64,000 nucleotides of DNA from Patescibacteria group bacterium. GTDB lineage: Bacteria; Patescibacteriota; Dojkabacteria; JAHIVN01. Below are positions 9,757-40,204 of the stretch, piece by piece. Position 1 is the stretch's first letter. The number at the start of each line of letters is the position of its first letter. The notes under the pieces were generated by a model that saw nothing but the letters and a program-made list of their open reading frames with translations, had not been told where the DNA came from and searched no databases. Both the position numbers and the translations under genes were made by a program. The stretch is taken from contig JBDRHZ010000012.1 of NCBI GenBank assembly GCA_043816305.1, positions 55,701 to 119,700 of the forward strand. Reading direction: 5' to 3'.

Positions 9757-9797
9757 CAGTACCAACTGGCGGGGTGCGTGGGACAAGGCTCGAACTT
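9757..9797. repeat. Hybrid direct repeat B (att-like junction)
   Basis: The left 16 bp (9757..9772, CAGTACCAACTGGCGG) is identical to 40051..40066 next to tRNA-Ser. The right 34 bp (9764..9797) is identical to repeat A. Confidence 0.8.
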
Positions 9798-10045
9798 TTT
9801 TCCTTACTCACCCTCTAACAAGGATATATATTCCCGAACTTTCTTTCAAGTTTAATTTACCTGCTAATTTAGATTTAAATTGTTAAAATAACCATTATGA
9901 TCTACAAAAAAGGAAAGGGTGCGAGAGTTTACTACAACACCGGTTTTAGGAATTATGGATGTCTGATATCATTACTTATTCTTCCTATCCAGCTTATCAT
10001 CCTTGTACTAATGAAAATGATAAGAAGGTCATAAGACAAACTGGG

Positions 10046-10264
10046 TTATTTCCCTTTTCTTAATTTTCGAACCCCTTTAAATTTGCTGTTTCTTTGAGAC
10101 TTATTATCAAGGAACTTCTTAGTCTCAGTGTTGATTTTGACATATAACTTTGTCTTGGGGTTTTTTACCTGAACTCGCTTCCGAACAGCTCCTTTTCTTT
10201 GATTATCACCATACGGTTTATTTTTTGCCATTATTAGTTTTGTAAAAATTAAATAATTGTTCAA
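10046..10264 (-). CDS. Small lysine/arginine-rich basic protein
   Basis: 72-aa ORF immediately downstream of the Avs-like gene. The probable start is the internal Met (MAKNKPYG...) at 10231. Confidence 0.35.
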   Translation of the reverse strand: MNNYLIFTKLIMAKNKPYGDNQRKGAVRKRVQVKNPKTKLYVKINTETKKFLDNKSQRNSKFKGVRKLRKGK

Positions 10265-10281
10265 GATATTTAATCAGTCTT

Positions 10282-13200
10282 TTATTCTTCGTCTAATATT
10301 TGATCTTTTTCTCTTCGTATTTCTCTAAGTACATGTTGATGAATATCAGTGAAAAATCTTTTCGCTGGAGATTCAGGGGCAATATTTGCAAGGACTTCGG
10401 CAGATTTATCACGCATTTCGATATCCTGAGGAAATGGTTCTCCTACCGTTCCTGATCTCCCACCTGAGATCAACGTGCTTCCTAAAGAGGATCTTACTGA
10501 GTTAAAACACTCTGACCCCTGAAAATAAGCACGTTCTAATATTTTTATGATAAATCCAATATTATTCCAAATAAAACTTGCTGGTGCTTCTGATATAAGT
10601 GAAGCTGCATATTTAATTTTGTCAGCTGAACCAGATTCTATCCATTCATTTAGAATTTTCATGACAGTGCCATTAAACTCGTTTGCTACCATAGAAAACA
10701 AATCCTTCCCGAAATGGATATGCTCCCATTTTTTTAGATCAGAGTAAACCCAGTCCCTTAGTTGTCTCAATATATCCTCATACTCTTTAGTTTCATGAAA
10801 TCTAAACTTTGTTTCTTTCTCATGCCTGAAAGGCAAAGGATCGTATTCTTTATTTGTTGATTTCTCAGTTTTATCAATACGTTTTTTCAAGAATTCAATA
10901 GTTTCAGTTGGATATTGAAAGGAGATCTCATTAAGATAATTTTCAATATAGTACCCATCAATAGAAGGGCAATCAAGAAGCATATTATTAATTTTTTCAA
11001 TATCCTTTACTGATAAGTCGTGTATTTTGAAAGCCCCATGTTGGTTAAACTCACTTAAAACCTCTTCTGCTATTTGAGATGATCCTTCAAACTTTATATT
11101 CAATGCCAATTGCAGTGCAATTAGTTTATCTACTTCAGCTAACCTGCTAAGTGAATGAACGCTAGATAATCGAACTGTTTTATCTGGAGAATTTAGTAAC
11201 TCAGTAAGCACTGATTTATTTTTTTCTTCAGCAATCTCGTTGCCAAACAGTCCCCAACTGAAAGAAGATGCTAGCTGTCTTTGTAGCGCTATGTTTCCTA
11301 ACTTGAGAGTTTTTCGTGCTATTTCTAAGGCTTTTTCTTTCTCAAACTTTTGTAGATAAGTAATTACTGTACTAAGGAAATTGCTGAGAACAGAGGTAGG
11401 GTTCTCCATAATAAAGTCCCCTAGCTCTCCGCCAAATTGTGGAGATAATCTAATAAGGCTACTCATGAAATGAGCCTGAATACCGTTCTGTTTGGAGATC
11501 GTAATAATTTGGGATACCCTTTCTTCAAGAAAAAGAATAAGATCAGAGTTCGAATATTTTTTTAGAGTTTTCTTAGCTGTAAGATCTATCCATTCACTCC
11601 ATCGTTCTTCTCTTTCCTTATAGGAGAGTTGCTCTTCCTCAAATGATCTGCCCCATCCATCCATTAAAGCTCTAACTATGTCTAATCCAAGGCTTTGAGG
11701 TATAGCATCTAGTACTTGTTGTGAGTGTTCCTTAGCCTTTGTTTTACCGTGCTTTGCCTGCCAAACTACAGCTTGTATTATTTCAACTAGTAAGATTGGA
11801 TCAAGGTTATTTTTTTCAACTATTTGTTTAAGTTTTATTAGAACTTCAATTATCCTTTTCTCCCATTCTTTAATTAGTTTTCCTCCTACTACAGCACCAA
11901 ACATGCCTCTTGGATAGCTTGTAGCTGCTGTAATTGTTTGAATTGCTCGACTGGCATAATGTAAATTATCTCCAATAAGGTAGTGAAATGCTAAATCAAT
12001 TGCTTTTTCCCTAAATAGATCTACCTGCGTAGGGGAAACAAAATATGGTCTCATTGTAAACTTGTTGTCATGAAACTCAGTAATATCAGTTTCCGTTGCT
12101 AAAACATGATCGATTACTTCAAATGCGGGAAGTCCGTATTCAGGATCTTTAGTCCATTCAATTGCCAGATTTAATATTCGCTCTGTGTATATCAGGGGTT
12201 TTCTTGGTTTTATTTCTATTAAGTCACTTAGTATCCTCATAGGATGCTCCGGATATTGATTTTGTCGCCTCTTATCAGTTTGGGCAAGTTTCCATAATAA
12301 ATTACATGCATCAATTAAATAATCAAGATTGTAAGCTATATCTTGTAATATTTCGGGAAGCTTATGTGTTACATAGTCGTAGGTAACATTATCTGACCAT
12401 CTAGGATCTAAACCAGACTTTCTTGTAGGATTATCTATAGCAAATCTTACTAGAGTAAGCATCCTTTCGGGTTGGAAATAGGCAATATCTTTAATCATTT
12501 CAAGTATCTCTTTTCTCTGCCAAATACCAGCATTTTTAAACTCATCCATAACTATCAACCACACTTCATCAAGAAGAGTAGTTCTCAATCCCTTCCCATT
12601 CTCATAGACCAGACGCCAGTCGAGTTGACTTAAATTCTTAAGTAAATTACTGGCTAATTTCCCTTTTGCAATTTTATACACCCTGTCAGCAAAACCTGTG
12701 GATTTTTGTTCATTTGAATTGAAGCAGGCTACTTCTCTAATATAATCAGCTAGAAGATCAGGGACTATTCTAAGCTGTTGGCCACGTCTTAAGAGGATAC
12801 CAGCATCTTCGAGTAATCTGATCTTACTATCAATAAGAACTTTGTCTTCTCTAAGTAATTCTTTCGTAATTTCAGAGAAACTTTCATCAGATTGTATTAC
12901 TGGTTGAATTAAAGTAATTAAATCCAAGAGTTTTTTAATCTGAGGTTTTTCAGTTGCATCACCTATTTCTGCTGTGACAACATCTTTAAACCTAGATAGC
13001 ATGAGTCGCCGAAATGACTTGGAATTATTTAATGTTGCAGGTAGAATAACCTCTTTACTGAGGACTTTGGCTGCAATTACTGTAATTAACGGACAATCTT
13101 TACTTAATTTAGCTATAGTTATAGCCAAGTCCTCAGGGCCATTATTTTCTCTCAGTACCTCCTTAGCAAGTATTTCTGCTTCTTTTTTAGTTAAACTTTC

Positions 13201-14394
13201 GATGTTTAGAATAAGCTCTTCACCTGTAGCAATTGCTGATGAAAATATACTTGCCTTTATTTTTTCTAAACCATATGGTCTCGTTGATAGCATAAGCTTA
13301 CATTTCAATCCTTGATGTACTATTCCATTTATAAGTACATTCAGATCATCTCTATCATGTGCATCATCTGCTATCAAAATAGTATTTTCTGGTATTCCTT
13401 CTAAATCTTTTGGTTCTATCTCAATACCTAATGACGCAAAAAATATGTGGGAAAAATTCGACTTTACTTCAGTATCGTTTGTAATTTCTCTTAAAATTTT
13501 AGTTTTTCCTATTCCTCCACGACCACTTATAATCGCAACTATTTGATCGCTTTTTAAATATTCTTTTAGTTTGCCTATTTCTTTGGTTCTTCCGACTAAA
13601 TTCCAGTCTTGGGTAAAAAATGAATCTACTCCAGGTAAACTATTAAAGTAATTTTCTGGTTTTACCCATGGTCCAGGTTTTGGTTCCCCAAGAAAGTCCA
13701 TACGTTGATTTGGAAAATACGCATCGATTATTCTTAATCTTTCTGGTCGAGGTAATCTTCTGATATCATCAGAAATGTCAACTAAATCTCGTAAATGCCA
13801 ACTCGATCCATGTTTTGTAATAGCTTCATCTTCCTTTGCGGTTGCTTCTTTCGTCAGAAGAATGAATTGATCAGTTATTTTAAAATTGGTTTTTTCTATT
13901 ATCTTTGAGAAATCGGCTTTCTGTACTGCATTGTCGATTTTTTGTGGTCCAAACTTGCTATTATATTCAACACGTTTACATTGGAAAGTTTTAATACTTT
14001 TGTCTGGAAATTTTGCATATATATCAATCCCATACTGTTTATCTCCATGTCTACCGAAAATACGAACATCGGTGGCTTCTGGGTATAAGGATTTGATTAG
14101 GTCTAAACAAAACTTTTCGAATTTTGCTGGTGGCAGGTTATAAAGTGGTAAAGTGTCTGTTAATAGCCTTTCGGGTGACGGTACTAATCGTCCTGATAGT
14201 TTATACAATTCATCTAATGAAACCTCTGGGAATAAAGCATGGAGTTTAGCTAAGTCCACTTCCTTTGGTCGAGAAGTTCCAGCTTCCCATCTACTTATAC
14301 TTTGTTGTTTAATTTCTAACTGTCTTGCTAGATCACTTTGTCTCCAACCTTTTTTCTCTCTTAATTCTTTTATTTTTTCTGATATTCTATACAT
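10282..14394 (-). CDS. Avs-like antiviral STAND NTPase: XRE-HTH, Mrr-type PD-(D/E)xK nuclease, P-loop NTPase and long helical-repeat C-terminal domain
   Basis: 1370 aa. Residues 1-65 are an XRE HTH (KKGWRQSDLARQLEIKQQSISRWEAG). Next comes an Mrr_cat-like region (FEKFCLDLIKSLYP...GDKQYGIDIYAKF...TFQCKRV). Walker A is VAIISGRGGIGKTKI and Walker B is ILIADDAHD. About 900 aa of helical repeats follow. Confidence 0.7.
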   Translation of the reverse strand: MYRISEKIKELREKKGWRQSDLARQLEIKQQSISRWEAGTSRPKEVDLAKLHALFPEVSLDELYKLSGRLVPSPERLLTDTLPLYNLPPAKFEKFCLDLIKSLYPEATDVRIFGRHGDKQYGIDIYAKFPDKSIKTFQCKRVEYNSKFGPQKIDNAVQKADFSKIIEKTNFKITDQFILLTKEATAKEDEAITKHGSSWHLRDLVDISDDIRRLPRPERLRIIDAYFPNQRMDFLGEPKPGPWVKPENYFNSLPGVDSFFTQDWNLVGRTKEIGKLKEYLKSDQIVAIISGRGGIGKTKILREITNDTEVKSNFSHIFFASLGIEIEPKDLEGIPENTILIADDAHDRDDLNVLINGIVHQGLKCKLMLSTRPYGLEKIKASIFSSAIATGEELILNIESLTKKEAEILAKEVLRENNGPEDLAITIAKLSKDCPLITVIAAKVLSKEVILPATLNNSKSFRRLMLSRFKDVVTAEIGDATEKPQIKKLLDLITLIQPVIQSDESFSEITKELLREDKVLIDSKIRLLEDAGILLRRGQQLRIVPDLLADYIREVACFNSNEQKSTGFADRVYKIAKGKLASNLLKNLSQLDWRLVYENGKGLRTTLLDEVWLIVMDEFKNAGIWQRKEILEMIKDIAYFQPERMLTLVRFAIDNPTRKSGLDPRWSDNVTYDYVTHKLPEILQDIAYNLDYLIDACNLLWKLAQTDKRRQNQYPEHPMRILSDLIEIKPRKPLIYTERILNLAIEWTKDPEYGLPAFEVIDHVLATETDITEFHDNKFTMRPYFVSPTQVDLFREKAIDLAFHYLIGDNLHYASRAIQTITAATSYPRGMFGAVVGGKLIKEWEKRIIEVLIKLKQIVEKNNLDPILLVEIIQAVVWQAKHGKTKAKEHSQQVLDAIPQSLGLDIVRALMDGWGRSFEEEQLSYKEREERWSEWIDLTAKKTLKKYSNSDLILFLEERVSQIITISKQNGIQAHFMSSLIRLSPQFGGELGDFIMENPTSVLSNFLSTVITYLQKFEKEKALEIARKTLKLGNIALQRQLASSFSWGLFGNEIAEEKNKSVLTELLNSPDKTVRLSSVHSLSRLAEVDKLIALQLALNIKFEGSSQIAEEVLSEFNQHGAFKIHDLSVKDIEKINNMLLDCPSIDGYYIENYLNEISFQYPTETIEFLKKRIDKTEKSTNKEYDPLPFRHEKETKFRFHETKEYEDILRQLRDWVYSDLKKWEHIHFGKDLFSMVANEFNGTVMKILNEWIESGSADKIKYAASLISEAPASFIWNNIGFIIKILERAYFQGSECFNSVRSSLGSTLISGGRSGTVGEPFPQDIEMRDKSAEVLANIAPESPAKRFFTDIHQHVLREIRREKDQILDEE

Positions 14395-14398
14395 ATCT

Positions 14399-14624: not shown

Positions 14625-15440
14625 TTATTCCTTTCTAAGTATTAGGCAATAATGATGAATAATGTTACTTACCCAAGCATGAGGATATCCATATGGTGCT
14701 AACCCCACTTTGTCTTGAGCCCAAATTTTTTCATCTTTCAATACATAAAGTGTTCCTAACCTTTTAGCTAAATCCCAAGCCAATGGATATAATTTTCCCT
14801 CTTTCTTAACATTTTTGATAATTACCGTGATATAACCCTTTGGCTTCAAAATCTTGTAAATTTGCTCATATATTTTATACAGTTCATCGAGGAACTGTTC
14901 ATAATCATCAATATTTCCCAAATCTTTTTCATCTTTTGAATATTTTACATCTAGATCATCTTTTTCTCTTTTATTCTTAAAGTCTTTAGTACTCCTGTTT
15001 AATACATTCCAGTAAGGTGGTGATGATATACAGTAGTCAATTGTTGGTAAATCCAACTCATTAATATTCATTGAATTTCCCACTATTATTTTTTGGGTTG
15101 TTCTCTTTTTTGCTATTTCTGTATATTTGGGGTTAAGCTCGATTCCAATTCCTTTTCTGTTAGTTCTATCGCAAGCGACTAAAGTACTCCCAATACCTAC
15201 AAAAGGATCAAGAACAACTTGACCTTCTTTTGTAAAGAACTTTACAAAGCTTTCAATCATGGTTGAAGAATAAGTAGCTGGATGTTCTTTTGATTTACCA
15301 TTTGTCAGATCCCTCTCTTCTTTCAAGTCTTTCGGAAGGGCATTAAAAATAAAAAAACTACTCAAAAACTTTACCCATTCAGTTCCATTCAAATCGTTAA
15401 GAGTATTAACCATTTTTCTTTTTTTTGTAATTTTGTCCAT
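14625..15440 (-). CDS. DNA methyltransferase, N6-adenine/N4-cytosine type
   Basis: EHPATY...VLDPFVGIGST...GIELNP (HPxxxP + FxGxG module) followed by SSPPYW (motif IV). 271 aa. Confidence 0.7.
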   Translation of the reverse strand: MDKITKKRKMVNTLNDLNGTEWVKFLSSFFIFNALPKDLKEERDLTNGKSKEHPATYSSTMIESFVKFFTKEGQVVLDPFVGIGSTLVACDRTNRKGIGIELNPKYTEIAKKRTTQKIIVGNSMNINELDLPTIDYCISSPPYWNVLNRSTKDFKNKREKDDLDVKYSKDEKDLGNIDDYEQFLDELYKIYEQIYKILKPKGYITVIIKNVKKEGKLYPLAWDLAKRLGTLYVLKDEKIWAQDKVGLAPYGYPHAWVSNIIHHYCLILRKE

Positions 15441-15444
15441 ATAA

Positions 15445-16488
15445 TTATATTTTTATAGATATTGAATTATTTAATAAACCCTCTTCAATTATTTTTACTG
15501 CATAATCCCTTTTAGACCTTTCAACATTTAAATCAATATTTTTGTAAGTTGTTCGTAATTCTTTCTCAAATGAAGGGTTAAGACCAACCAATTCATCTAC
15601 AGTAATAATATTCCAACTTTTATCTGAGACTAGTATTTTCCACTCTTTATCATGATTCCGTGAATTATTTATCCTATTAAATTCTTCTCGTTCCAAGAAT
15701 GGAAATAAATAAAGAAACTTCTCCTTTTGTAAATCAATATTAGATTTTAATAGTAAATATTTTGATACCAAAGCCTCTCCAACAACTATATGTCCCATTC
15801 TAAAACTTGAATCTGTGAAATTCTTATACCTTGGCCCTCTTATTTTGACCCATCCATATTTTGTTTTTATTAAATCTCTTGATTCTAAATATAATTTCCA
15901 GTCTCCATTATAAGGGGGTGCAAGAAAAAAGCGGTTAAATGTTTTAAGCATTTTATTTTCTATCTGCTTGATAATCTCTTTTAGGTCAGTGGTATTTTCA
16001 TAACATTTGACAAGTTTCTTTATGTCAGATAATTCATCCGTTATCAGGTATCTAATGCAAGGATCTTGACTATGTTCCTCAGACGCGCTTAATGCAGCAG
16101 CCATTAAATCATGTCTAATTTCATGTTGGCCTTTTTTTAAATAGTAGATTGATAGAATATTATTAAGTAAGGCACCGTAGGCATGGTGAAACCTTTGTAG
16201 TTGAGCGTTACCCCAGGATCTGGTATTTAAACAATGTGACCCTTCTATTACAATTTTTGGAGAAGAATTAACAATTTGTTGAGTAAAAGGATCAAACCAT
16301 TCCTCATCAGCGAACCATGCAAAATCATTTGAACCATAAACAACTCCATTGATTCCAAAGCTGAGTCCACCTTCAGCCCAAATATCTTGATCATGATTGC
16401 TGCTACCAATATATACACGACGCTTGAGGGTATCAGTATTCCCTATACTTGAGAGCTCTCTTTTTATAATATCATCGGTTTTTGACAT
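15445..16488 (-). CDS. Hypothetical protein inside the R-M operon (candidate restriction-endonuclease subunit)
   Basis: 347-aa ORF, translationally coupled to both neighbours. No assignable motif. Confidence 0.35.
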   Translation of the reverse strand: MSKTDDIIKRELSSIGNTDTLKRRVYIGSSNHDQDIWAEGGLSFGINGVVYGSNDFAWFADEEWFDPFTQQIVNSSPKIVIEGSHCLNTRSWGNAQLQRFHHAYGALLNNILSIYYLKKGQHEIRHDLMAAALSASEEHSQDPCIRYLITDELSDIKKLVKCYENTTDLKEIIKQIENKMLKTFNRFFLAPPYNGDWKLYLESRDLIKTKYGWVKIRGPRYKNFTDSSFRMGHIVVGEALVSKYLLLKSNIDLQKEKFLYLFPFLEREEFNRINNSRNHDKEWKILVSDKSWNIITVDELVGLNPSFEKELRTTYKNIDLNVERSKRDYAVKIIEEGLLNNSISIKI

Positions 16489-17584
16489 AGTGTAAAATGT
16501 AATTAATTAATCCATCGTAATTAATATCTTTTAAATAATTTATTAAACCGATGCTATCTAATGGGAATTTCAATTCTTTTGACATTTTTTCTAAACTATC
16601 TGTTGATAAATTTGCTAAAAGATAAAATTTAATATAAGTATCTAACCATTTATTATATCTTGATTCCTTAGCATAATCTGTTATTTGAGTCGAATTCTTA
16701 TCGATAATCGTCATATCACCTTCTGCATTAAATGTGATTAGTCCTGAATATGAACTTGCGTCCTTTTTGAAAGGAATCACTTCGAAAGCTTTATGAAAGA
16801 TCTGTTTCGATATATATTTTTCAATCTGAGGTGCTGAGGATTGTAGTGTTTTAACTTCAAATACAGCATTTTTCCAATCTTGAAATGATTTTGTATTATT
16901 TTTGACTTTATCTAAACCGAACGTTGTTATTGTCATTAATTCGATTAATGAATATCCTCTAAAACCTACCCCATACTTTGTTAAAGCATTAGATAATTCA
17001 TCAACTCTATATATTGATGCATCTGGGGTACCGACTCCATAATAGAAGGGTATCTGTGTATCTGTAAAAAACCCGAATTTTGAAAAATAACTAGAGATAA
17101 TAAATTCAAAGAACGATTCGAATTCGGATACCTTTGTTAATCCCTTCCTAATTGGAATTATTATGTAGTCATTAGGATTATAATTATTTTGGATCAACTC
17201 CTTGCTTATTTCTTTTAACCTCTCAAGGAACAAGCTATATTTTTCATATTCAATCGGTAATAAGTATTTATAACCCTTAAGGATATATGGTTTTTCGAGT
17301 ACATTTATTCTTGGTGTACATGAAAACGACAGATCAGAAATTGACATCAACCCTTCTTGAATATTGTATTCCTCTGCTTGATTAAATATTCTATAATAAT
17401 CCCTTTTAAGAAAAAAACGACACTCAGGTTCAGAAATATCTAAGTATCCATGAGCAGATAAAACGGCATATAAAAATGCTTCCCTCGGACTCAATTCAAT
17501 AGTATCTCCGACACAAGGGTTTTTTACTCGTTTTAAACCAAGAGATTTCGTTAATGTATTTAAAACAAAAGATTTATTTATCAT
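16472..17584 (-). CDS. Hypothetical protein inside the R-M operon (candidate restriction-endonuclease subunit)
   Basis: 370-aa ORF. Possible PD...(D/E)xK-like elements (GVGTPD ... FEVK), but the spacing is atypical. Confidence 0.35.
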   Translation of the reverse strand: MINKSFVLNTLTKSLGLKRVKNPCVGDTIELSPREAFLYAVLSAHGYLDISEPECRFFLKRDYYRIFNQAEEYNIQEGLMSISDLSFSCTPRINVLEKPYILKGYKYLLPIEYEKYSLFLERLKEISKELIQNNYNPNDYIIIPIRKGLTKVSEFESFFEFIISSYFSKFGFFTDTQIPFYYGVGTPDASIYRVDELSNALTKYGVGFRGYSLIELMTITTFGLDKVKNNTKSFQDWKNAVFEVKTLQSSAPQIEKYISKQIFHKAFEVIPFKKDASSYSGLITFNAEGDMTIIDKNSTQITDYAKESRYNKWLDTYIKFYLLANLSTDSLEKMSKELKFPLDSIGLINYLKDINYDGLINYILHYVKNR

Positions 17585-19530: not shown

Positions 19531-19535
19531 TGCTT

Positions 19536-21834: not shown

Positions 21835-21933
21835 ATATTCTATTATTCTATACTCTCTTACTGTTCCGCCCGCCGATTCAATCCATCGGATTAGATTAAC
21901 AAGTTACACACACAGTTAATCGTAGTCGAGGGA

Positions 21934-32341: not shown

Positions 32342-32476
32342 AAATTAATGTGGCTCATCCTCCTTTAGGGGATCTTCGTATTTCTTCTGTTTACGGTCTT
32401 TCTTCTCGTGGTATATGCCTCTTATGAAAATGACTGCTACATAAAAAGCAAAAACACTAACAAATATTACTAAGGT
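32342..32476 (-). CDS. Possible 44-aa single-TM protein
   Basis: Unlisted small ORF between the pilin and adhesin genes: MITLVIFVSVFAFYVAVIFIRGIYHEKKDRKQKKYEDPLKEDEPH. Confidence 0.25.
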
Positions 32477-32478
32477 GA

Positions 32479-35400
32479 TCATTTCTTTCTTCTTTTTGAT
32501 TTAATAATTAAGATTAATGTCATAGTACCGATGAGGATCAGCCCAAGACCAAGTGAGACAGGTCTCAGTATTGATTCTCCTGTCTGTGCGATAACAACAT
32601 CTCTGTAAATTCCAGCATTGAGAAAGTTGATACATCCGCTTGCTGTGAGGTATCTGACTCCATCTTTTACATAATCCTCGATCTCTCCATTATCCTTTGG
32701 AGGAAGTAAAACGAGCTTAAACTCATCAGGAGTAGTGATATTGTCATAGCCTTCCGGCTTGAAAACCCTAACAGTTATTAAAGTGTTGTATGGAAGCCCT
32801 GTGTATTCGTAATGACCGTTTTGATCTGTAGATATCTCTACTTCATTGCCTTCAAGGTAATCAGTTTCTCCCCATTTGAGATTTACTCTTACATCAGCAA
32901 TTCCTTTCTCAGATTCGTCATATTTGCTGTTGTTGTTTGAATCTTCCCAAATAAAGCCTCCCATACAGCAGGAACTTACTGTAGCTGTTATCACTTCGCT
33001 TTCAATCTGATCAATAACAGGAGTGTAAATAACAGCAGTATTCCTGACCTCAGTTCCGCTTTCAGTCGGTATTTCTATAACAACTTTGAATGAAAAAGTA
33101 CCTTCAGCTTGAGGTTCAAGTTGTCCAATACTCCAAGATACTTCGTTCTTCTCAGAATTAAATTCACTTGGAATTAAAGGATCTGGATTAACAAACTCAA
33201 CAAACTTAGTATGTTCAGGAATAGAATCTGTTATCTTTGTTTCCGGCGAGTATCCTGTTCCTGTATTTTTATAGCGGATTGTGTAAACAATCATTTCACC
33301 GGGTGATACGGTTTCCGGTAGCGTTTGCTCCTTAATAAGCTCTAGTATTGGAGCGTGTACTATTATTTCAACTTCATCATTAATCTGCGGTCTTTCGTTT
33401 TCGTTTGAATCTGTATAGTTGTATTCAACCTCGTTGTTAAATACATCGAGATCTTCAACAGGAACAAGGAATTTAGCTCTGATTTGAATATCAATACTTT
33501 GTCCAGCCTCAAGCTCAACTTCAAAACTGATGTTCTGTCCGTCAACTATAGTTTTATCTTCAGGATAATCAGCAGAAACAAACTGAAGCCCTTCAGGAAG
33601 GGTATCGCTTACTGTTCCAACAGCTTTTGCACTACCTGTATTTTCAATGTGAATTGAATAAACAATTTCCTCATCACTCTGATACTCTAATTTGTCTGAT
33701 ACTTTTACAATCTGCGCGTCTGGCTGGTTTACCTTAATTATTGCATTGTCGGTATCTGTTTCAACGAGTTCATTTTCCGATACAATTTCTGATACATTGT
33801 TAATTAACCTTTCTGCATCATCGTAAGATAAAGTAACTGTAGAATCTGAGTTGATCTTCACCCTGAATTCTTTAACTTTCCATTCGTCACTAACTTTTAG
33901 ATCCCCGATATTCCAGATAATGTCGTATCCCGTTGAAGTTTCGATTACTTCAATGTTATCCGACACATCAAAAACTTCACTGGATAAAATAACCTCAAAT
34001 TGATTTCCATCCTTATCGGTAATGTATTTTGGAAGATGATCTATTACAGAAGTATCAGGACTGTCTGCGTTACCAGTGTTTCTATAAATGAGGGTATATT
34101 TAAGTGAATCTCCTGCAATTGCGTAAACATCACTTGAATTATTCAAGATACTATCTGCATCAGATCCATATTCGGGATGGTCAACATCTTTTCCGCTGTG
34201 GTCTCTTCCTTTCTCAACTGCTGTTTCATTAATCACAAACTTTTCAATATCATTATCAGGATAAGCTTCAACAGGCAGGTTATGTTCTGCTTGGGCTGGC
34301 GGATAAAAGGAGGTTTCTGTTACTGCAAGATTGTTTAAGTTTGTAGTCCCAACAGGGAAAACAGGATCAAGAACAGCATTGAACGTTAGCGTTTTACTAG
34401 AACCCCAAATGCTTCTTGAATCAGGTTGATATGAGCCATTAAGGATATATTGAGGCTCAGTTGTACTCCAAACAACTCTCCGTGTTTCTCCATCCCAAGC
34501 GCCATCATCTGAAATATCGGAAACTGTCATTCTTTCAGGTACAAAGTCATAAACCTCTGTGTTATATGCGTTTCCAGTACCAATATTTCTTACATTAATC
34601 ACCCAGTGAATAGTTTGAGCAGGATCGGCTGTATCAATTCCATCATCTTTGGTTATCTCAAGTATCGGGGCGTGTATAGTCGTTATTGTCGAATCACTGA
34701 CTGGCGGTACTTCGTTTGTTCTGACCTCTGCTATGTTGTTAATCTGGGTGTTATCAGCAATTCCTGTATTGAACTGAACCGTAAACTGGACACGCCTATT
34801 TTCAGTTTGAGGTAAATTCCCTATATCCCAAACGATTTCACCGACTAGCAGTCCACTTGGATCAATTCGAGTAGTTAAGACCCCTCCATCGCTTATATCA
34901 ATTATCCGACCTTTTCTTATAACTTCCGATACATTATCGTGAATTGAAACAGAGTGCGCATCCGCGTCACCGCTGTTTTCAATGAAGATCGAGTAGGTCG
35001 TTAGCCTTTCGGTATTATCCGGATGCGCGCCTTGTATATGGTTTGAACTGCTGTTTGTTTCATCGCTGTCTGATACAGTTTTATCAATCGTCATTCTTAC
35101 TTCAGCAGTAATATTCGTCTGAGTCGAGTCATTAATAGGAGAAGTCTGATCGCTATCTACAATAGCAGTATTAGGAGCTTGATAAGTGCCGTGTGCTAAA
35201 GGAGAAGTAACTCTTGCTCTAACCGTAAAAGTCCTTGTTTCACTATGTTCAAGTGTTCCAACATTCCAAGTGATTGTATTTCCATTGTCATTTCCACCAC
35301 CTGAATCAATTATTTGTATTAAAGACTGGTCATAATCGTCTGTAACTGTAACTCCTGTTGCTCTTCCACCAGTATTGCCAACCGTTATATTATATGAAAT

Positions 35401-36633
35401 TTCTTCATTCGGTCTTGAGTCGTTTGTCTCAACATTTGTTTCATCATTGTCGCTAACAGTTTTATTAACAGTTAGTACAGGTGGAAGATCGAGCCTTACC
35501 TGTCCTGAATTAAACCAGTAAGGTATAAGAACAACATTGATAGGTGGTCTTTCTATTTGTCCCCAAACTGGCTGATTTGCATTCCAGTTTGACGGTGAGC
35601 CTAAGTCGTCTCTTTGAACAACTCCGGGTCTGATTGCAGGGTTTCCAACATCATAAATTGAAGGCTGAGTTTCCGATTGCGTTTCTTCGTGCCAGTTGTT
35701 ATCCCAGATAGTCGCAGGATCATTAATTATTATATTCGGATAATTTGTTCCCCAATTCTCATCGTAAGTAACAGTCCTATTTTGTCCTGAATTGATACAA
35801 AAGGTTTGGTCATATACTGCACCAGTCGGCATTACATCTCTAAAGCGGATATTGCATAAATTGTATGCAGATGCATTTCGTAAAACTGCTGTATATCTGA
35901 CTGTTAAGTTTGAACCATTCCATATTGGTGAAGCTGTAAAGCTTTGAAGCTGAATTGGCTGAATTGTCTCAAAAGAGTAAATAACATGACCGTATGCCGA
36001 AACATGATCGGGGAAATATCCTACATAACCCGAAGTAATATACTTACCGCTTCTTGCAGGAAAACCATTCATATAGATAGTTCCATAAGTTCCACCCGCT
36101 CCAAGTCTTGTTATATCCCCATCAGCCGGATTTACTCTTGATGTGAAGAAATTGAGTGCATCAAGGTTTACTCCGTGACCTGCATAACTGTATGACCACT
36201 CTCCAATTTCAATTCTAGTATTCGGCGGTACTGCAACTCTATCCGCAATATAAGGATACCTGTGAGCATCAGGATAGGTGATATCAGCAACTTGTGTAAA
36301 ATGATGATTTTGAATCCAGTTGCCATTTACACCATCAACATTCCCATTATCCCAATTAACTCCATTGCCTCCAATATCGTTGTACTGAAGTCCGACTACT
36401 GTTGCGAACTGACAGCCTCCGACATCCCCATCAGGATAAAAAGGATCTGCATGTACTGGTGTTGTAAAAAGCAGATTGGTAATTCCAGAAGTGAATAATA
36501 TCGTTAAAACAGTAAAGAAAGCCCTAAGAAGCTTTCCGATACGCTTTCTTCTGAATATTCGTTTTGTTAAAAGCCGATGTTTTAAAAAGCTTTTAATACG
36601 GTTATTGATAGGCTCTGTATTTTGAGACTTCAT
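32479..36633 (-). CDS. Giant cell-surface adhesin: signal peptide, multiple DUF11 repeats, CnaB-like domain and a C-terminal sorting signal
   Basis: 1384 aa. At least six DUF11-type repeats of the form hY.I.h.N.G...A..V.V.D.hP. A CnaB/SdrD-B-like segment GGFIWEDSNNN...QNGHYEY. The C-terminus is IAQTGES plus a hydrophobic helix plus KSKRRKK. Confidence 0.65.
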   Translation of the reverse strand: MKSQNTEPINNRIKSFLKHRLLTKRIFRRKRIGKLLRAFFTVLTILFTSGITNLLFTTPVHADPFYPDGDVGGCQFATVVGLQYNDIGGNGVNWDNGNVDGVNGNWIQNHHFTQVADITYPDAHRYPYIADRVAVPPNTRIEIGEWSYSYAGHGVNLDALNFFTSRVNPADGDITRLGAGGTYGTIYMNGFPARSGKYITSGYVGYFPDHVSAYGHVIYSFETIQPIQLQSFTASPIWNGSNLTVRYTAVLRNASAYNLCNIRFRDVMPTGAVYDQTFCINSGQNRTVTYDENWGTNYPNIIINDPATIWDNNWHEETQSETQPSIYDVGNPAIRPGVVQRDDLGSPSNWNANQPVWGQIERPPINVVLIPYWFNSGQVRLDLPPVLTVNKTVSDNDETNVETNDSRPNEEISYNITVGNTGGRATGVTVTDDYDQSLIQIIDSGGGNDNGNTITWNVGTLEHSETRTFTVRARVTSPLAHGTYQAPNTAIVDSDQTSPINDSTQTNITAEVRMTIDKTVSDSDETNSSSNHIQGAHPDNTERLTTYSIFIENSGDADAHSVSIHDNVSEVIRKGRIIDISDGGVLTTRIDPSGLLVGEIVWDIGNLPQTENRRVQFTVQFNTGIADNTQINNIAEVRTNEVPPVSDSTITTIHAPILEITKDDGIDTADPAQTIHWVINVRNIGTGNAYNTEVYDFVPERMTVSDISDDGAWDGETRRVVWSTTEPQYILNGSYQPDSRSIWGSSKTLTFNAVLDPVFPVGTTNLNNLAVTETSFYPPAQAEHNLPVEAYPDNDIEKFVINETAVEKGRDHSGKDVDHPEYGSDADSILNNSSDVYAIAGDSLKYTLIYRNTGNADSPDTSVIDHLPKYITDKDGNQFEVILSSEVFDVSDNIEVIETSTGYDIIWNIGDLKVSDEWKVKEFRVKINSDSTVTLSYDDAERLINNVSEIVSENELVETDTDNAIIKVNQPDAQIVKVSDKLEYQSDEEIVYSIHIENTGSAKAVGTVSDTLPEGLQFVSADYPEDKTIVDGQNISFEVELEAGQSIDIQIRAKFLVPVEDLDVFNNEVEYNYTDSNENERPQINDEVEIIVHAPILELIKEQTLPETVSPGEMIVYTIRYKNTGTGYSPETKITDSIPEHTKFVEFVNPDPLIPSEFNSEKNEVSWSIGQLEPQAEGTFSFKVVIEIPTESGTEVRNTAVIYTPVIDQIESEVITATVSSCCMGGFIWEDSNNNSKYDESEKGIADVRVNLKWGETDYLEGNEVEISTDQNGHYEYTGLPYNTLITVRVFKPEGYDNITTPDEFKLVLLPPKDNGEIEDYVKDGVRYLTASGCINFLNAGIYRDVVIAQTGESILRPVSLGLGLILIGTMTLILIIKSKRRKK

Positions 36634-36967
36634 TTTTTAAATACTTAATATTTAATTTAACTACTAGAGTTCCTTCTTCTCTGTTTTTGATTTTTAGAAG
36701 TCCACGCTTATTTACCTGTTGTATTGCCTCATTTAAACTTCCACTTGTTATTCCACATCCGTATATTTGAAAAATTCTTTCTCCTGTATCATTGAAAAAG
36801 TCCTGTCCGTTGAGGAGTTCCTCTTTAAATACAAAACACCAGTGTTCTGGACAAAAACCAAGATAGACAAGCAGGAAAATAGTTAATCGGGCTTCTAATT
36901 CAGAAGCATTCCTTAGAATATGAAATACAAAGTGCATCAATGCTGTTTCTGTGTCTTGTCTTATCAT
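36602..36967 (-). CDS. Hypothetical protein
   Basis: 121 aa, no motif. Confidence 0.35.
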   Translation of the reverse strand: MIRQDTETALMHFVFHILRNASELEARLTIFLLVYLGFCPEHWCFVFKEELLNGQDFFNDTGERIFQIYGCGITSGSLNEAIQQVNKRGLLKIKNREEGTLVVKLNIKYLKNEVSKYRAYQ

Positions 36968-37365
36968 TTGAAGTAAATAACAACTGAGTTAGATATATTG
37001 AAAACTGGATTACCGTTTGATTTGCGAATTTCAACCTTTGGCACATTCAAACCATGCTTGTTACATGCTTCACGAAGGCTTTCTACTCTCTGCCTTAACT
37101 TATCTTTTCTGTGCATGAGGTTTTTGACTGCTTCCAGATAGTCCTCAAAGCTGGCAATCATATAAAAGCCGTATGGACCTTTCGTTGTTGATCCAATCGG
37201 ATAATTTCCTTCGTTAACCAAATACTGAACGACACGTCTGATTTCTCTATCGTTAAGCGGTACACATTCCATCAGCTGATCAACCTGTATAGGATCTACT
37301 TTGCCGATATGCTTCCGAATCAGCTTTAATATTTGTTTTTGGTATCTTCTTTCTTGTTCGTTCAT
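36964..37365 (-). CDS. Hypothetical protein
   Basis: 133 aa. Coupled to its neighbours. Confidence 0.35.
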   Translation of the reverse strand: MNEQERRYQKQILKLIRKHIGKVDPIQVDQLMECVPLNDREIRRVVQYLVNEGNYPIGSTTKGPYGFYMIASFEDYLEAVKNLMHRKDKLRQRVESLREACNKHGLNVPKVEIRKSNGNPVFNISNSVVIYFK

Positions 37366-37565
37366 ACTTGATACATTGGTAATTTGCCTTGCATCTTTGA
37401 GTAGGCGTTATGACAAACTTTGGCGTAATTTGTTAAATTAGTTGCAATGATCTCAACCTTTTCTTCCGTAAGCTTTCTTTTGTATCTCGGTTCAAACACC
37501 TTCCTTATCTGACGTAAAAATTCCTTTCGGTCTGCTACTTTTTGCTTTTCCCTCTTTGTCATCAT
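37362..37565 (-). CDS. Small protein, paralogue of 9446..9703
   Basis: 67 aa with the shared RKVFEPRY block. Confidence 0.45.
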   Translation of the reverse strand: MMTKREKQKVADRKEFLRQIRKVFEPRYKRKLTEEKVEIIATNLTNYAKVCHNAYSKMQGKLPMYQV

Positions 37566-37768
37566 TTTTTGTCCTTACAGATAAACAATTTTTCAAGTCT
37601 CTCTCCAATGGCTTTAGCTATACGAAAAGCATTTGAAAGGTTAGGTATCGATTCACCTCGCTCTATTTTGATGTAACCCATTAAGGATAAATTGGCTCTG
37701 CGAGCAACCTCTCTTTGAGTCAATTTCTTGTTTTTCCTCACTATTTTCAGGTTATTCTTAATGGTCAT
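37562..37768 (-). CDS. Cro-like XRE HTH regulator
   Basis: 68 aa, LTQREVARRANLSLMGYIKIERGES. Divergent from the S24 repressor. Confidence 0.7.
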   Translation of the reverse strand: MTIKNNLKIVRKNKKLTQREVARRANLSLMGYIKIERGESIPNLSNAFRIAKAIGERLEKLFICKDKK

Positions 37769-37784
37769 TTGTGATATATAGAAA

Positions 37785-37806
37785 ACTGTATATTTATTTA
37801 TACAGT
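37785..37806. promoter_or_regulatory. Operator palindrome ACTGTATA-TTTATT-TATACAGT in the divergent Cro/CI promoter region
   Basis: Perfect 8-bp arms. A TTGACT-N17-TATTAT promoter for the repressor gene sits at 37925..37953. Confidence 0.55.
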
Positions 37807-37956
37807 ATCATATATAGACTAATAATTGTGGTCAAGAAAAATAATCCCGAGTAACTCTGAGAGTATACCGATTCACCTTTACTAACCGAGCAAATTCGAG
37901 TTTTACGAAATTCATAATGTACACTTGACTTTATATACTAAAGTGTATATTATTAT

Positions 37957-38628
37957 ATGTATTCTATGACTAACAAGATGATTCACTCTTTAGGAAAACT
38001 CTTAAAACAAATTCGAATAGAAAAAGGGCTTACACAGATAGATGTAGGTCGTAAAATGGGCTTTACCAGCAATGGCTATGTTGCGACCATTGAAAAGGGG
38101 AAATATGAGCCCAATGAAGAAACACTTAAAAAGTATGCAAAAGCGTTAGATATTACTTTTGAAAAGATATTAAAGGTCAAGCAAAAAGGACGTTTAATGG
38201 ATATGGGATTAAGAGAAGATCATATCTTTACAGAAATGATGCGTATCCCTATTCTTGGTCAAGTACCATGCGGAGAACCTTCTGAGGCTATTGAAGAAGC
38301 TCATGAGTACTTTCCTGTACCCTTTGATGAAGAGCTGTCCAGAAAAAAAGATATATTCGGACTCAAAGCTAATGGACTCTCTATGAAAGACGCGGGAATT
38401 TTACCCGGAGATATAATTATCATTGATCCTTACGCTTTCATAAACAATGGAGATATTGTTGTTGCTAAGATAAGTGAAGATGTAACTTTAAAGTTTTATT
38501 ATGAGCGTGGCGGTTATGTTGAGTTAAGACCAGCAAATCCTGATTTTAAACCGATTAAAACCAACGACCCTTCTTTTAGAGTTGTTGGGAAAGTAATTAA
38601 GAAAATAACTGTTGAAAATTATGCTTAA
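37957..38628 (+). CDS. CI/LexA-like repressor (XRE HTH plus S24 peptidase)
   Basis: 223 aa. N-terminal HTH and a C-terminal S24 domain with GLSM (Ser) and VVAKI (Lys). Confidence 0.75.
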   Translation: MYSMTNKMIHSLGKLLKQIRIEKGLTQIDVGRKMGFTSNGYVATIEKGKYEPNEETLKKYAKALDITFEKILKVKQKGRLMDMGLREDHIFTEMMRIPILGQVPCGEPSEAIEEAHEYFPVPFDEELSRKKDIFGLKANGLSMKDAGILPGDIIIIDPYAFINNGDIVVAKISEDVTLKFYYERGGYVELRPANPDFKPIKTNDPSFRVVGKVIKKITVENYA

Positions 38629-40204
38629 ATATTATATCTACTGTAGAAAATCAACAGACGAAAATAACAGACAAGTTCAGTCTATTCAAGCACAGGAAAC
38701 CGAACTGCTTCAATTTGCCGAAAAAGAAGATCTTGAAGTTATTGAAATATTTCGAGAATCTAAAACCGCAAAACAACCCGGAAGAGAAATATTCAATAAA
38801 ATGTTAATGCAGATGGAACAGGGAAAAGCTGAGGGAATACTTGCATGGCATCCTGACAGACTTGCTAGAAACTCGGTAGATGGAGGAAAAGTCATCTTTA
38901 TGATGGATCAGGGCCTAATTAAAGATCTAAAATTTCCCACATACTGGGTAGATACCTCACCTCAAGGGAAATTCACACTTAGTCTTGCTTTTGGACAATC
39001 GAAATACTATATCGACAACTTGAGTCAGAACGTTAAACGAGGGCAAAGGGAAAAGCTTAGACGTGGAGAATGGCCTACTATGGCTATTCTCGGGTACAAA
39101 AATGATTTAGTGAAAAAGAAAATCTTACCAGATCCAAGAACTTTCCCTCTTATTAAAAGACTTTTTGATGAATATGCAAAAGGAAGATATTCCCTACGAG
39201 AAATGTCAGAAGAAGCTTACAAGTGGGGACTAACAAGTAAATTTGGGACAAAACTCACAAAAAGCGTAGTTCAGAGGATACTCGTAAATCCTTTCTATAT
39301 GGGAATTATGATCTATGGTGGTAAAAAGTATAAAGGTATACATAAAAAAGCTATTAATACAGGTACTTTTCTTCAAGTTCAAAAGGTATTAAAAAATCGT
39401 GGTAAACCTACTGATTATAAGAAAGAGAAAAAGAACTTCCCATTCACCGGACTTATTAAATGTGCTGAATGTGGCTGTTCTATCACAGCTGAAGAGCAGA
39501 AAGGACATACTTATTATCGTTGTACCAAGAAAAAAGGGAAATGCAATCAAAAATATGTACGATCTGAAGAAGTCGAAAGTAAGGTTAGCGAAATACTAAA
39601 GAATATTGCCGTAGATGATGAAGTCTTTAAGCTAATGATTATGGCATTAAAACAAGGACAAGATAATGACTATGAAGTACACAAAAGCAGTATAGACTTC
39701 TGGCAAAAAGAATATAACAGGATTGATGAGAAGAAAAAACGATTACTCAATTTGGTAACTGATGGGAAAATTTCAGAAGAGGATTTTGAGGAAAAGAAAA
39801 ATGAGCTTGAATGTGAGCAGTCAAATGTACAGGATAATATTGATGAAATAGAAAAGGTTGGAAATCAGTGGATCGAACAGCAGAAGAACCTCGCAATCAA
39901 TTGCTACAACGCCTTTCTTGTGTTTTCAAAAGGAGACGATACAGATAAGAAGCTAATACTCCACTCAGTCGGCTCGAACTTTTTACTAAGTGGCAAAAAC
40001 ATAAGCTGGGACTGGATAGAACCCTTCGACATAATGGCTGGAAATACCAGCAGTACCAACTGGCGGAGAGACAGGGATTCGAACCCTGGATACTCTTTCG
40101 AGTATACTGACTCTCCAAGTCAGCGCATTCGACCACTCTGCCATCTCTCCAATAAAAAAATTCTAAAGATCCTTCCCCCTCCTTCGCAGGCTCTGGAGGA
40201 CTAA
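38612..40204 (+). CDS. Large serine recombinase (integrase)
   Basis: 530 aa. YYIYCRKSTDE (Ser nucleophile), recombinase domain, zinc ribbon CAECGCS...YYRC. The ORF reads through the att core (40051..40066) and across the tRNA-Ser gene. Confidence 0.75.
   Translation: MKIMLKYYIYCRKSTDENNRQVQSIQAQETELLQFAEKEDLEVIEIFRESKTAKQPGREIFNKMLMQMEQGKAEGILAWHPDRLARNSVDGGKVIFMMDQGLIKDLKFPTYWVDTSPQGKFTLSLAFGQSKYYIDNLSQNVKRGQREKLRRGEWPTMAILGYKNDLVKKKILPDPRTFPLIKRLFDEYAKGRYSLREMSEEAYKWGLTSKFGTKLTKSVVQRILVNPFYMGIMIYGGKKYKGIHKKAINTGTFLQVQKVLKNRGKPTDYKKEKKNFPFTGLIKCAECGCSITAEEQKGHTYYRCTKKKGKCNQKYVRSEEVESKVSEILKNIAVDDEVFKLMIMALKQGQDNDYEVHKSSIDFWQKEYNRIDEKKKRLLNLVTDGKISEEDFEEKKNELECEQSNVQDNIDEIEKVGNQWIEQQKNLAINCYNAFLVFSKGDDTDKKLILHSVGSNFLLSGKNISWDWIEPFDIMAGNTSSTNWRRDRDSNPGYSFEYTDSPSQRIRPLCHLSNKKILKILPPPSQALED
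40051..40066. repeat. att core repeat C (CAGTACCAACTGGCGG), shared with 9757..9772
   Basis: 16-bp identity. Includes the last 6 nt (CCGCCA) of tRNA-Ser. Confidence 0.75.
40061..40150 (-). tRNA. tRNA-Ser (anticodon GGA)
   Basis: 90-nt reverse complement: GGAGAGA acceptor, anticodon arm CTGAC-TTGGAGA-GTCAG, long variable arm, T-arm CAGGG-TTCGAAT-CCCTG. Ends CCGCCA. Confidence 0.8.

Follow-up and report, generated by a model that had tools for sequence, protein, structure and literature searches.

A probable integrative and conjugative element at tRNA-Ser(GGA) in a Patescibacteria genome of the Dojkabacteria lineage

The DNA investigated here (the window) is a stretch of 64,000 nt from contig JBDRHZ010000012.1 (positions 55,701-119,700, forward strand; assembly GCA_043816305.1). 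It belongs to a metagenome-assembled genome (MAG) of a Patescibacteria group bacterium (GTDB Patescibacteriota; Dojkabacteria; JAHIVN01). Coordinates are window positions unless another contig is named. Next to tRNA-Ser(GGA) lies a 30,294-bp insert that is bounded by a 16-bp direct repeat. It encodes a large serine recombinase (LSR), a CI/Cro-type regulatory pair, a type IV secretion system (T4SS) with a coupling protein and a candidate relaxase, a sortase, a large adhesin, and a block of cargo genes. We consider it likely that this insert is an integrated, probably still functional integrative and conjugative element (ICE) of a bacterium from the Patescibacteria, also called the candidate phyla radiation (CPR).

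Window proteins were searched against the Pfam, NCBIfam, PADLOC, and PHROGs libraries, and tRNA genes were called with ARAGORN and Rfam. An earlier note, made from the sequence alone, had proposed a ~30-kb ICE at the 3' end of tRNA-Ser(GGA). This proposal held up, with an exact empty site, an LSR, a CI/Cro pair, a VirB4 ATPase (E~1e-85), and a PF13814 relaxase candidate, and searches of the four libraries showed all of the genes that the note listed to be present. The analysis draws on MAGs and metagenome contigs, and the host is known only from MAGs. Table 1 gives the features and their positions.

Boundaries of the element and the empty site

Two copies of the 16-mer CAGTACCAACTGGCGG, and no more, are present in the window with up to two mismatches permitted. 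They form the attL and attR cores, and 0.01 copies are expected by chance. The exact repeat noted earlier was thus recovered, as was its overlap with the target gene: both ARAGORN and Rfam call an intact minus-strand tRNA-Ser(GGA) whose last 6 nt fall in the second copy. The right copy therefore consists of CCGCCA plus the 10 nt downstream of the tRNA. The element has a GC content of 35.0%, compared with 37.5% and 39.6% in the flanks.

The earlier note had suggested a comparison with a genome that lacks the insertion. Exact-sequence look-up of two flanking host proteins retrieved a 43-kb contig, ena:ERZ27247128:k141_1603332 (L001), in which a single copy of CAGTACCAACTGGCGG is followed directly by the tRNA and the insert is absent. 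The flanking host genes, a 332-aa gene and a histidine phosphatase gene, are immediate neighbors in this contig. Positions 1-9541 of L001 match window positions 232-9772 at 100% identity, positions 9513-20621 match 40040-51146 at 99.96% identity, and the deficit relative to the window is exactly 30,294 bp. L001, from a near-identical strain, is a true empty site of the insert and proves the boundary of the element. The tRNA-Ser(GGA) gene is regenerated intact by the insertion. A second empty junction starts a contig from SRR6514274 (L004). In the NCBI records, a distance of 30 proteins separates the two flanking proteins in one MAG (MFH1543231 to MFH1543261, contig of 140,951 bp), against 2 in a second MAG (MBU0976711 to MBU0976713); both MAGs are labeled "Patescibacteria group bacterium."

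One detail of the predicted empty site was wrong. The tRNA had been expected to abut the flank left of 7484, but L001 retains 7484-9756. This segment opens with a third att-like site, whose 34 bp shared with the element comprise the final 9 nt of the core (AACTGGCGG) and the first 25 nt of the left arm. An 85-aa open reading frame (ORF) in the segment (9446-9703) is 48-60% identical (E 1e-9 to 1e-13) to a small ORF found beside Cro in the ICE family. These likenesses suggest that the 2.3-kb segment is what remains of a decayed sibling element of identical att specificity, left by an older and separate insertion, which the ICE recombinase might still mobilize. We scanned for an ancestral attB, in which the flank left of 7484 would be joined to the tRNA, and obtained no match, so no "doubly empty" site was found. 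If the site at 7484 is an old attL, the crossover falls within AACTGGCGG, and this part of the core, common to the third copy, is probably where it takes place. Accretion-mobilization of cis-mobilizable elements (CIMEs) is known from ICESt1 and ICESt3 of Streptococcus thermophilus. As in that system, the ICE here is accompanied in tandem by a short putative remnant, flanked by att sites and devoid of recombination and transfer genes. The streptococcal recombinase differs in type from the LSR.

The reconstructed attP reads …GGAAATACCAG-CAGTACCAACTGGCGG-GGTGCGTGGG…. The right-hand arm of the element, GGTGCGTGGGACAAGGCTCGAAC, resembles the tRNA arm AGAGACAGGGATTCGAAC, with a GACA..TCGAAC motif that lies 5-6 bp farther from the core in P' than in B'. 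Serine integrases follow a known attP/attB spacing rule, and the offset of 5-6 bp fits this rule. When the reconstructed attB and attP were scanned for dyad symmetry, no clear center emerged.

Two other observations concern this site. Contigs L002 and L004 from SRR6514274 break exactly at the att core and tRNA 3' end, which could reflect a mixed occupied and empty population or merely a repeat common to other tRNA-Ser genes. Paralogous ABC-2 (ABC2_membrane_6) transporter genes occur in the host flanks on both sides of tRNA-Ser: the right-flank pair was read in the window (41302-42117 and 42098-42892), and on the left one gene was scanned in the window (4715-5503) and its partner seen in L001 (3688-4503).

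Gene content and relatives of the element

With the exception of the LSR and CI genes, all genes of the element lie on the minus strand. The T4SS set listed in the earlier note was found (VirD4-, VirB4-, VirB6-, and VirB2-like proteins and an M23 hydrolase), except that VirB4 proved to be two conserved ORFs. These overlap (29206-29970 and 27362-29209), and the split recurs in six of six relatives, which excludes a sequencing frameshift. The best VirB4 matches are to FATA-type models, at 286.8 bits and below the curated cutoffs of 325 and 590, and the closest plasmid homologs are CD1110-family proteins of Firmicutes and Actinobacteria with 26-28% identity. A VirB2/T4SS_pilin-like gene is present, whereas the lack of a VirB2-type pilin, typical of monoderm systems, marks the mating-pair-formation class MPF-FATA. 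Such a pilin agrees with published descriptions of the Patescibacteria clade (PMC12102498, PMC12857230).

Several family assignments start from weak matches that homologs strengthen, namely those of the pilin, the sortase, the coupling protein, and the VirB6-like protein. The sortase and pilin of the earlier note stand on this basis, their matches in the window itself falling below the Pfam gathering scores; the pilin homolog in the relative L008 matches TrbC, and sortase homologs in L093 and L092 match Sortase. The VirB6-like homolog in L092 shows a weak TrbL_3 match. Remote homologs of the coupling protein (E 1e-54 to 1e-26) carry PF10412 TrwB_AAD_bind, PF12696 TraG-D_C, and PF02534 T4SS-DNA_transf. 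The adhesin has an N-terminal signal or transmembrane (TM) segment and ends in IAQTGE, a TM helix, and KSKRRKK, which together form a sortase sorting signal. The Ig-domain protein is a candidate wall-spanning component of the channel.

The relaxase candidate scores 52.8 bits against PF13814, above the cutoff of 25.3, and PF13814 is found in all 41 of its homologs. This family corresponds to the MOBC superfamily of relaxases, and in streptococcal integrative and mobilizable elements (IMEs) it occurs together with VirD4 and serine integrases (PMC5357655); it is classed as a PD-(D/E)XK fold (PMC3424549). Between the genes for the coupling protein and the relaxase candidate lies a hairpin that five elements share unchanged except in its loop. 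Their coupling proteins are 61-80% identical, and both flanks of the hairpin vary. Its DNA fold is computed at -18.9 kcal/mol (z=-4.55), and no T-run follows the stem. A plain terminator is unlikely, given the missing T-run and the constancy of the hairpin beside coding DNA whose protein products are down to 61% identity. An origin of transfer (oriT) classically lies beside the relaxase gene, as a DNA site that a protein recognizes, and we regard the hairpin as a candidate oriT.

The regulatory region is laid out as a divergent CI/Cro switch. The CI-like repressor combines a helix-turn-helix (HTH) domain with an S24 peptidase in which the GLSM serine, the VVAK lysine, and the PCG cleavage site are legible. 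The CI gene overlaps the start of the LSR gene at its 3' end, so the two are probably co-transcribed. The promoter-like site facing CI (37925-37957) ends 3 nt ahead of the ATG, and the repressor mRNA may therefore be leaderless. Palindromes at ~37786-37807 and 37930-37950 could be operators. Three small ORFs downstream of Cro are candidates for a recombination directionality factor; the 133-aa product of one matches phrog_2113. SXT/R391, with its SetR repressor, is an SOS-controlled ICE. Like SXT/R391 and, functionally, ICEBs1 (ImmR/ImmA), the present element has a CI-like repressor over a long transfer operon, and by analogy with SetR its self-cleaving S24 domain would imply induction by DNA damage. 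SXT/R391 and ICEBs1 differ in having tyrosine integrases with Xis and unrelated types of T4SS and relaxase.

The cargo consists of two blocks. What had been called a restriction-modification (R-M) operon contains two methyltransferases and a controller HTH, and no restriction endonuclease was identified in it. The large STAND NTPase had been described as "Avs-like," a label we rejected, as no PADLOC Avs model matched; PADLOC returned HTH-type matches and a weak LmuA-like match. The STAND block may have a role in defense.

The closest recombinases, at 87%, 80%, and 59% identity, are in GCA_964501355.1, GCA_041742375.1, and GCA_026415655.1, the last a Candidatus Dojkabacteria. These three share the order recombinase, CI, Cro, small ORFs, adhesin, pilin, VirB6, VirB3/4N, VirB4. 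Coupling-protein homologs with 61-80% identity gave four more views of the family, including the complete 1.09-Mb genome CP129477.1. In the relatives the backbone continues with VirB4, the Ig-domain protein, M23, HTH_36, the coupling protein, Replic_Relax, sortase, and DUF2958. The common backbone is present in at least six relatives from Dojkabacteria-like genomes, and these relatives adjoin different tRNA-Ser genes (anticodons tga, cga, and gct). Their cargo varies. L089 carries a type I R-M system, and L092 carries a methyltransferase, a helicase, and GmrSD. In the slot after the relaxase and sortase genes, L090 (13762-22135) has major facilitator superfamily (MFS) and ABC-F genes, a metallo-beta-lactamase-fold protein, and an aminoglycoside-phosphotransferase-like (APH) gene; in the same slot L093 (14352-22634) has a copper-resistance cluster with a CsoR-like regulator, HMA, a multicopper oxidase, and a P-type ATPase. 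A constant backbone with variable cargo and varying insertion sites is the pattern of an ICE family.

In the relative L005, a tRNA cluster separates the ICE from a second serine-recombinase element (12707-21476) in head-to-head orientation. The recombinase ORF of this second element (579 aa) extends through tRNA-Ser(cga) and tRNA-Arg(gcg). The element also encodes Replic_Relax, HTH_36, an R-M pair, and DUF5677, with no T4SS in the 8.5 kb seen. By its gene content it looks like a mobilizable element.

Table 1. Features of the window, with their positions, strands, and supporting evidence
Feature	Position	Strand	Evidence
Third att-like site	7477..7517	.	7484-7517 identical to 9764-9797 (34 bp)
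Putative 2.3-kb remnant (CIME-like) of a decayed sibling element, tandem to the ICE	7484..9756	.	GC 33.6%; present in the empty-site strain
attL core, left 16-bp direct-repeat copy	9757..9772	.	Exact repeat; empty-site contig has a single copy joining the flanks
Probable ICE, 30,294 bp (one repeat copy counted)	9773..40066	.	Absent from L001; GC contrast
STAND block	10046..14394	-	Pfam, PADLOC
72-aa very basic protein beside STAND NTPase	10046-10264	-	PADLOC candidate family PDC-S38, E=2e-24
1370-aa HTH + NB-ARC/STAND NTPase	10282-14394	-	HTH_3, NB-ARC, weak HEAT (Pfam)
Putative R-M cargo block	14625..19374	-	MTase_II and Control_protein matches
Second N6/N4 methyltransferase	14625-15440	-	
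Two ORFs between the methyltransferases	16472-17584, 15445-16488	-	No match in Pfam, NCBIfam, PADLOC, PHROGs
N6/N4 methyltransferase	17574-19178	-	
Controller-type HTH	19159-19374	-	
DUF2958 protein, backbone gene	19536..19829	-	Pfam E=1.4e-19; present in L089, L090, L092
Sortase, N-terminal TM; HRFG, LYTC, and R motifs	20426..20974	-	Pfam E=0.0014, weak, below gathering score
Replic_Relax (PF13814, MOBC-type) relaxase candidate, N-terminal winged helix and nuclease-like domain	20935..21834	-	
Candidate oriT, 18-bp-arm hairpin (AGTGATTGGGTGGACTCC / GGACTCCACCCAATCACT) + CCCTCGACTA	21923..21971	-	Between coupling-protein stop and relaxase start
Type IV coupling protein, 904 aa, divergent VirD4/TraG/TrwB, N-terminal TM and P-loop	21967..24681	-	TraD E=1.8e-9, TrwB E=0.025 (weak)
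HTH_36 / DnaD-like replication-initiation protein	24678..25481	-	HTH_36 E=2.9e-15; PHROGs replication initiation/DnaD-like E=6e-16
Peptidase M23 cell-wall hydrolase (VirB1 role)	25481..26524	-	Pfam E=2.8e-8
TM-anchored Ig-like-domain protein, Pro-rich linker	26524..27393	-	Pfam/NCBIfam, hydropathy; kept in relatives
VirB4 ATPase domain	27362..29209	-	NF045975 (Mbov_0397 ICE ATPase) E=2.7e-85; NF045971 (CD1110) E=3.5e-85; P-loop_TraG
VirB3-like two-TM segment fused to VirB4 N-terminal domain	29206..29970	-	NF045975 positions 25-278, E=1.2e-10
VirB6/TrbL-like polytopic membrane protein, ~7 TM helices	29939..31996	-	Hydropathy; weak MMCAP2_0566 match
VirB2-like pilin, signal peptide and two TM helices	31989..32327	-	T4SS_pilin E=3.6e-5, TrbC E=0.0025
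45-aa single-TM protein	32345..32482	-	Kept in relatives
1384-aa surface adhesin, DUF11/CLIPPER and SdrD_B repeats	32479..36633	-	Pfam; sequence ends, hydropathy
Three conserved small ORFs (67, 133, 121 aa)	36602..37565	-	Kept in relatives L005, L006, L008
Cro-like HTH, heads the long minus-strand operon	37562..37768	-	HTH_3 E=4e-13; same place in relatives
Divergent regulatory region	37769..37956	.	Promoter-like TTGACC-17-TATGAT toward Cro, TTGACT-17-TATTAT toward CI; consensus matches only
CI-like repressor, HTH_3 and S24 (LexA-type) peptidase	37957..38628	+	Pfam E=4.8e-27 and 5.8e-14
Large serine recombinase (LSR)	38621..40204	+	Resolvase, Recombinase, Zn_ribbon_recom (Pfam)
attR core, right repeat copy	40051..40066	.	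Overlaps the tRNA 3'-terminal 6 nt (CCGCCA)
tRNA-Ser(GGA), integration target, left intact	40061..40150	-	ARAGORN; Rfam tRNA 58.6 bits; same gene in the empty site

A serine recombinase gene that spans the attachment site

An LSR at the right end of the element had been noted earlier. The protein has the N-terminal resolvase, recombinase, and zinc-ribbon domains of an LSR (Pfam E 5e-18, 1.4e-11, and 1.9e-11), and the catalytic motif region R12-K13-S14 is invariant in an alignment of homologs, but the ORF does not end inside the element; it crosses attR into the tRNA. The conserved part of the protein ends at Trp481, whose TGG codon (40061-40063) is the antisense of the tRNA CCA. In the integrated state, the ORF continues as …STNW-RRDRDSNPG… through the antisense of the tRNA to its stop codon. 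Translation of the reconstructed circle gives …STNW-RGAWDKARTF…, with a different tail of 38 residues. In an alignment of 13 family members, conservation likewise stops at the invariant Trp; beyond it come R-R-x-R-D-S-N-type tails encoded by the antisense strand of the tRNA acceptor and T-arm.

We then checked 82 loci of the recombinase family in species-representative genomes, mostly of Patescibacteria. At 61 of them, the 3' end of an opposite-strand tRNA lies -5 to +226 nt from the end of the recombinase alignment. Since 12 of the other 21 loci have <220 nt of contig remaining, 70 loci are informative, and a tRNA stands at the end of the recombinase ORF in 61 of these 70. Of these 61 loci, 57 have their stop codon beyond the 3' end of the tRNA, and 28 have a register identical to that of the window (Trp TGG as the antisense of CCA). 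The targets are tRNA-Ser (25) and tRNA-Gln (17), as well as Asn, Arg, Pro, and others. The clade occurs mostly in Patescibacteria MAGs and also in bins labeled Omnitrophota, Planctomycetia, and others.

A tblastn search for the T4SS backbone beside the 82 recombinase loci found it only with the closest recombinases. The attP-spanning ORF is therefore a trait of the recombinase clade and not of the ICE, and we rejected the wider clade as an ICE marker. Integrase genes that contain attP are known from Myxococcus phage Mx8 (IntP) and Sulfolobus SSV1 (Int). As with the LSR, the crossover lies in the 3' part of the integrase ORF, and the tail differs between the integrated and excised states. Those two enzymes are tyrosine recombinases, whereas here a serine clade appears to swap a non-conserved tail after an invariant Trp.

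Conjugation, alternatives, and meaning

The insert is a discrete, att-bounded element with its own recombinase, a T4SS containing VirB4, and a coupling protein whose direct matches are weak and whose homologs support it. From this gene set we infer that the element is transferred by conjugation. The LSR would have recombined a circular attP, made of the 3' end of the LSR gene, the core, and an arm resembling the tRNA T-arm, with an attB made of the CCA end of tRNA-Ser and the sequence downstream; the exchange would probably have taken place inside AACTGGCGG. While integrated, CI, transcribed together with the LSR, would repress the divergent Cro promoter. RecA-stimulated self-cleavage of the S24 domain would then derepress one long minus-strand operon that covers adhesin, pilin, VirB6, VirB3/4, hydrolase, replication initiator, coupling protein, relaxase, and sortase. 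Excision would need a directionality factor. Once the element is excised, the PF13814/MOBC-type relaxase may nick at the invariant hairpin, and the coupling protein would feed the DNA to a monoderm-type (FATA-like) T4SS, with cell contact aided by the VirB2-like pilus and the sortase-anchored adhesin. Cargo would ride along, as methyltransferases and the STAND NTPase here and as type I R-M, copper resistance, and APH/ABC-F/MFS genes in relatives.

In its logic the element is an ordinary ICE. What is unusual is the host, the combination of a pilin with a monoderm core, the split VirB4, the divergent relaxase candidate, and the tRNA-targeting serine integrase whose ORF spans attP. Tn5397- and Tn4451-type elements are comparable Firmicutes elements with serine integrases. 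Streptococcal IMEs of class 8, with VirD4, a MobC/PF13814 relaxase, and a serine integrase (PMC5357655), are among the closest known systems. The ICEs and IMEs of Firmicutes share with our element an LSR at one end, a PF13814/MOBC relaxase (a candidate one in our element) beside a VirD4-type coupling protein, a FATA-like VirB4, a cell-wall hydrolase, and an adhesin paired with a sortase. Our element differs from them in its Patescibacteria host, its VirB2-like pilin, its split VirB4, a candidate relaxase too divergent for detection in plasmids by tblastn, a target at a tRNA 3' end rather than in a protein-coding gene, and a recombinase ORF that spans attP. Mycoplasma ICEs (Mbov_0397-family VirB4, MMCAP2_0566) give the best NCBIfam matches for the VirB4 halves and a weak one for the VirB6-like protein, and their hosts are likewise wall-poor or minimal-genome bacteria. 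The VirB4 score is far under the equivalog cutoff (287 vs 590 bits), however, and unlike our element, Mycoplasma ICEs use a DDE transposase and insert at random.

A 2025 survey (Quinonero-Coronel et al., PMC12102498) described a distinct Patescibacteria VirB4 clade related to MPF-FATA, with frequent VirB2-like pilins. It reported no PrgB-type adhesins and found relaxases in only 103 genomes. The systems of that clade and our element have in common a monoderm FATA-like VirB4, VirB3, VirB6, one or more VirB2-like pilins, a VirD4-like protein, and a CPR host. The published systems are described as chromosomal, often near dnaA, and mostly lacking a relaxase or adhesin, and one is essential. Here, by contrast, the T4SS sits in an element that is dispensable and bounded by repeats, and that also encodes a recombinase, a relaxase candidate, a sortase-type adhesin, and a CI/Cro switch. 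Our literature search found no paper that delineates an ICE in Patescibacteria.

Several points weigh against a conjugative element. The survey concluded that Patescibacteria T4SSs are mostly non-conjugative (PMC12102498), and a 2025 review repeats this view (PMC12857230). The relaxase candidate has no plasmid homolog by tblastn and no sequence relative in the PDB, its nuclease-fold matches are weak, and its assignment comes from one Pfam family. In the window itself, the family matches of the coupling protein, pilin, and sortase are weak, and neither a VirB8-like protein nor a directionality factor was identified in the element. Furthermore, the occupied attL junction was seen in the window only. 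Exact-pattern scans did not find the left arm of the element in genome contigs or viral contigs, and in metagenome contigs they found no attL or attP, hence neither a circular junction nor a second occupied copy. Excision and transfer were therefore not observed.

These points bear on the view that the insert is an island moved by its recombinase, with a T4SS that serves an epibiotic lifestyle (attachment, effector delivery, or import of DNA or nutrients) instead of self-transfer, and that spreads, for example, by natural transformation. Such a role has reportedly been proposed for Saccharibacteria. It accords with the absence of observed transfer, with an adhesin and pilin that would suit host attachment too, and with the argument that the T4SS of the Patescibacteria clade was repurposed and that Southlakia cannot do without it in epibiotic growth (PMC12102498; PMC12857230), the essential T4SS of Southlakia epibionticum being reported by Wang et al. 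2023 as that review cites it (PMC12857230). We nevertheless think this view unlikely. A near-identical strain lives without the element, which is an ill fit for an essential lifestyle machine. The coupling protein, the PF13814 relaxase candidate, the invariant hairpin, and the replication initiator have no obvious role in secretion or import, and turnover of cargo together with different tRNA-Ser targets is typical of ICEs.

Presence in one strain and absence in another does not by itself give the direction of the event, and the insert might be a fixed chromosomal island that the other strain lost by chance recombination between the 16-bp repeats. We hold this to be very improbable, with the repeat lying exactly at the end of the LSR gene and at the tRNA CCA end, the same geometry at 61 of the 70 informative recombinase-family loci, relatives in different tRNA-Ser genes, and a GC content that differs from the flanks. 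An artifact of assembly or binning, in which a foreign contig was joined at a shared tRNA-like sequence, deserves mention because the host is a MAG, because no other copy of the occupied attL turned up in the collection scans, and because exact look-up did not find the LSR and VirB4 products, as delimited here, in the protein collection. Yet NCBI has records of the coupling protein, STAND, and Replic_Relax proteins on the 140,951-bp contig of the flanking genes. Both junctions are precise, and the LSR ORF runs on past attR, which is also seen in independently assembled relatives. An exact duplication bounds the insert, in keeping with site-specific integration, and the identical 34-bp left-arm relic in the empty-site strain ties the att specificity to this genome; such an artifact therefore has hardly any likelihood. 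A prophage or phage-like satellite could be suspected from the CI(S24)/Cro switch, the serine integrase beside a tRNA, and the replication initiator with PHROGs matches. In line with the earlier note, however, Pfam and PHROGs showed no capsid or terminase gene among the window proteins, nor any portal or tail gene, and no library gave a lysis gene. About 17 kb is taken up by T4SS, coupling, relaxase, and adhesin genes, and megablast of the element backbone found no match in 50,697 phages, which leaves this idea with practically no probability. A megablast of the backbone against 72,556 plasmids likewise gave no match, and we rejected a known plasmid on this ground.

An ICE thus remains the reading that we prefer. 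Beyond this one locus, we propose, tentatively and as a real possibility short of a probable one, that, at least in the Dojkabacteria-like lineage, the distinctive Patescibacteria T4SS, with its monoderm core and VirB2-like pilus, is the mating apparatus of an active, SOS-inducible ICE family whose highly divergent MOBC/PD-(D/E)XK relaxase is largely missed by standard screens. The proposal includes a large serine-integrase clade that embeds attP in its own 3' end and reads the tRNA CCA as an invariant Trp. Such a clade, which targets the tRNA CCA end and has a defined attP and attB, might serve as a tool for integration.

The Patescibacteria make up a large share of bacterial diversity, and their secretion systems, one of which recently proved essential in a cultivated member, are currently viewed as fixed, chromosomal, and non-conjugative. 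The locus offers a concrete counter-example with base-pair boundaries, a dispensable element in which a recombinase, a coupling protein, a relaxase candidate, and a candidate oriT accompany a CPR-type T4SS. Whether CPR bacteria conjugate becomes a testable question through junction reads, nicking at the hairpin, and att recombination. If the proposal is true, conjugation lets ultrasmall epibiotic bacteria trade genes for defense and for resistance to metals and antibiotics, and chromosomal T4SSs that have been called "relaxase-less, repurposed" in other CPR classes may have arisen from such elements by domestication.

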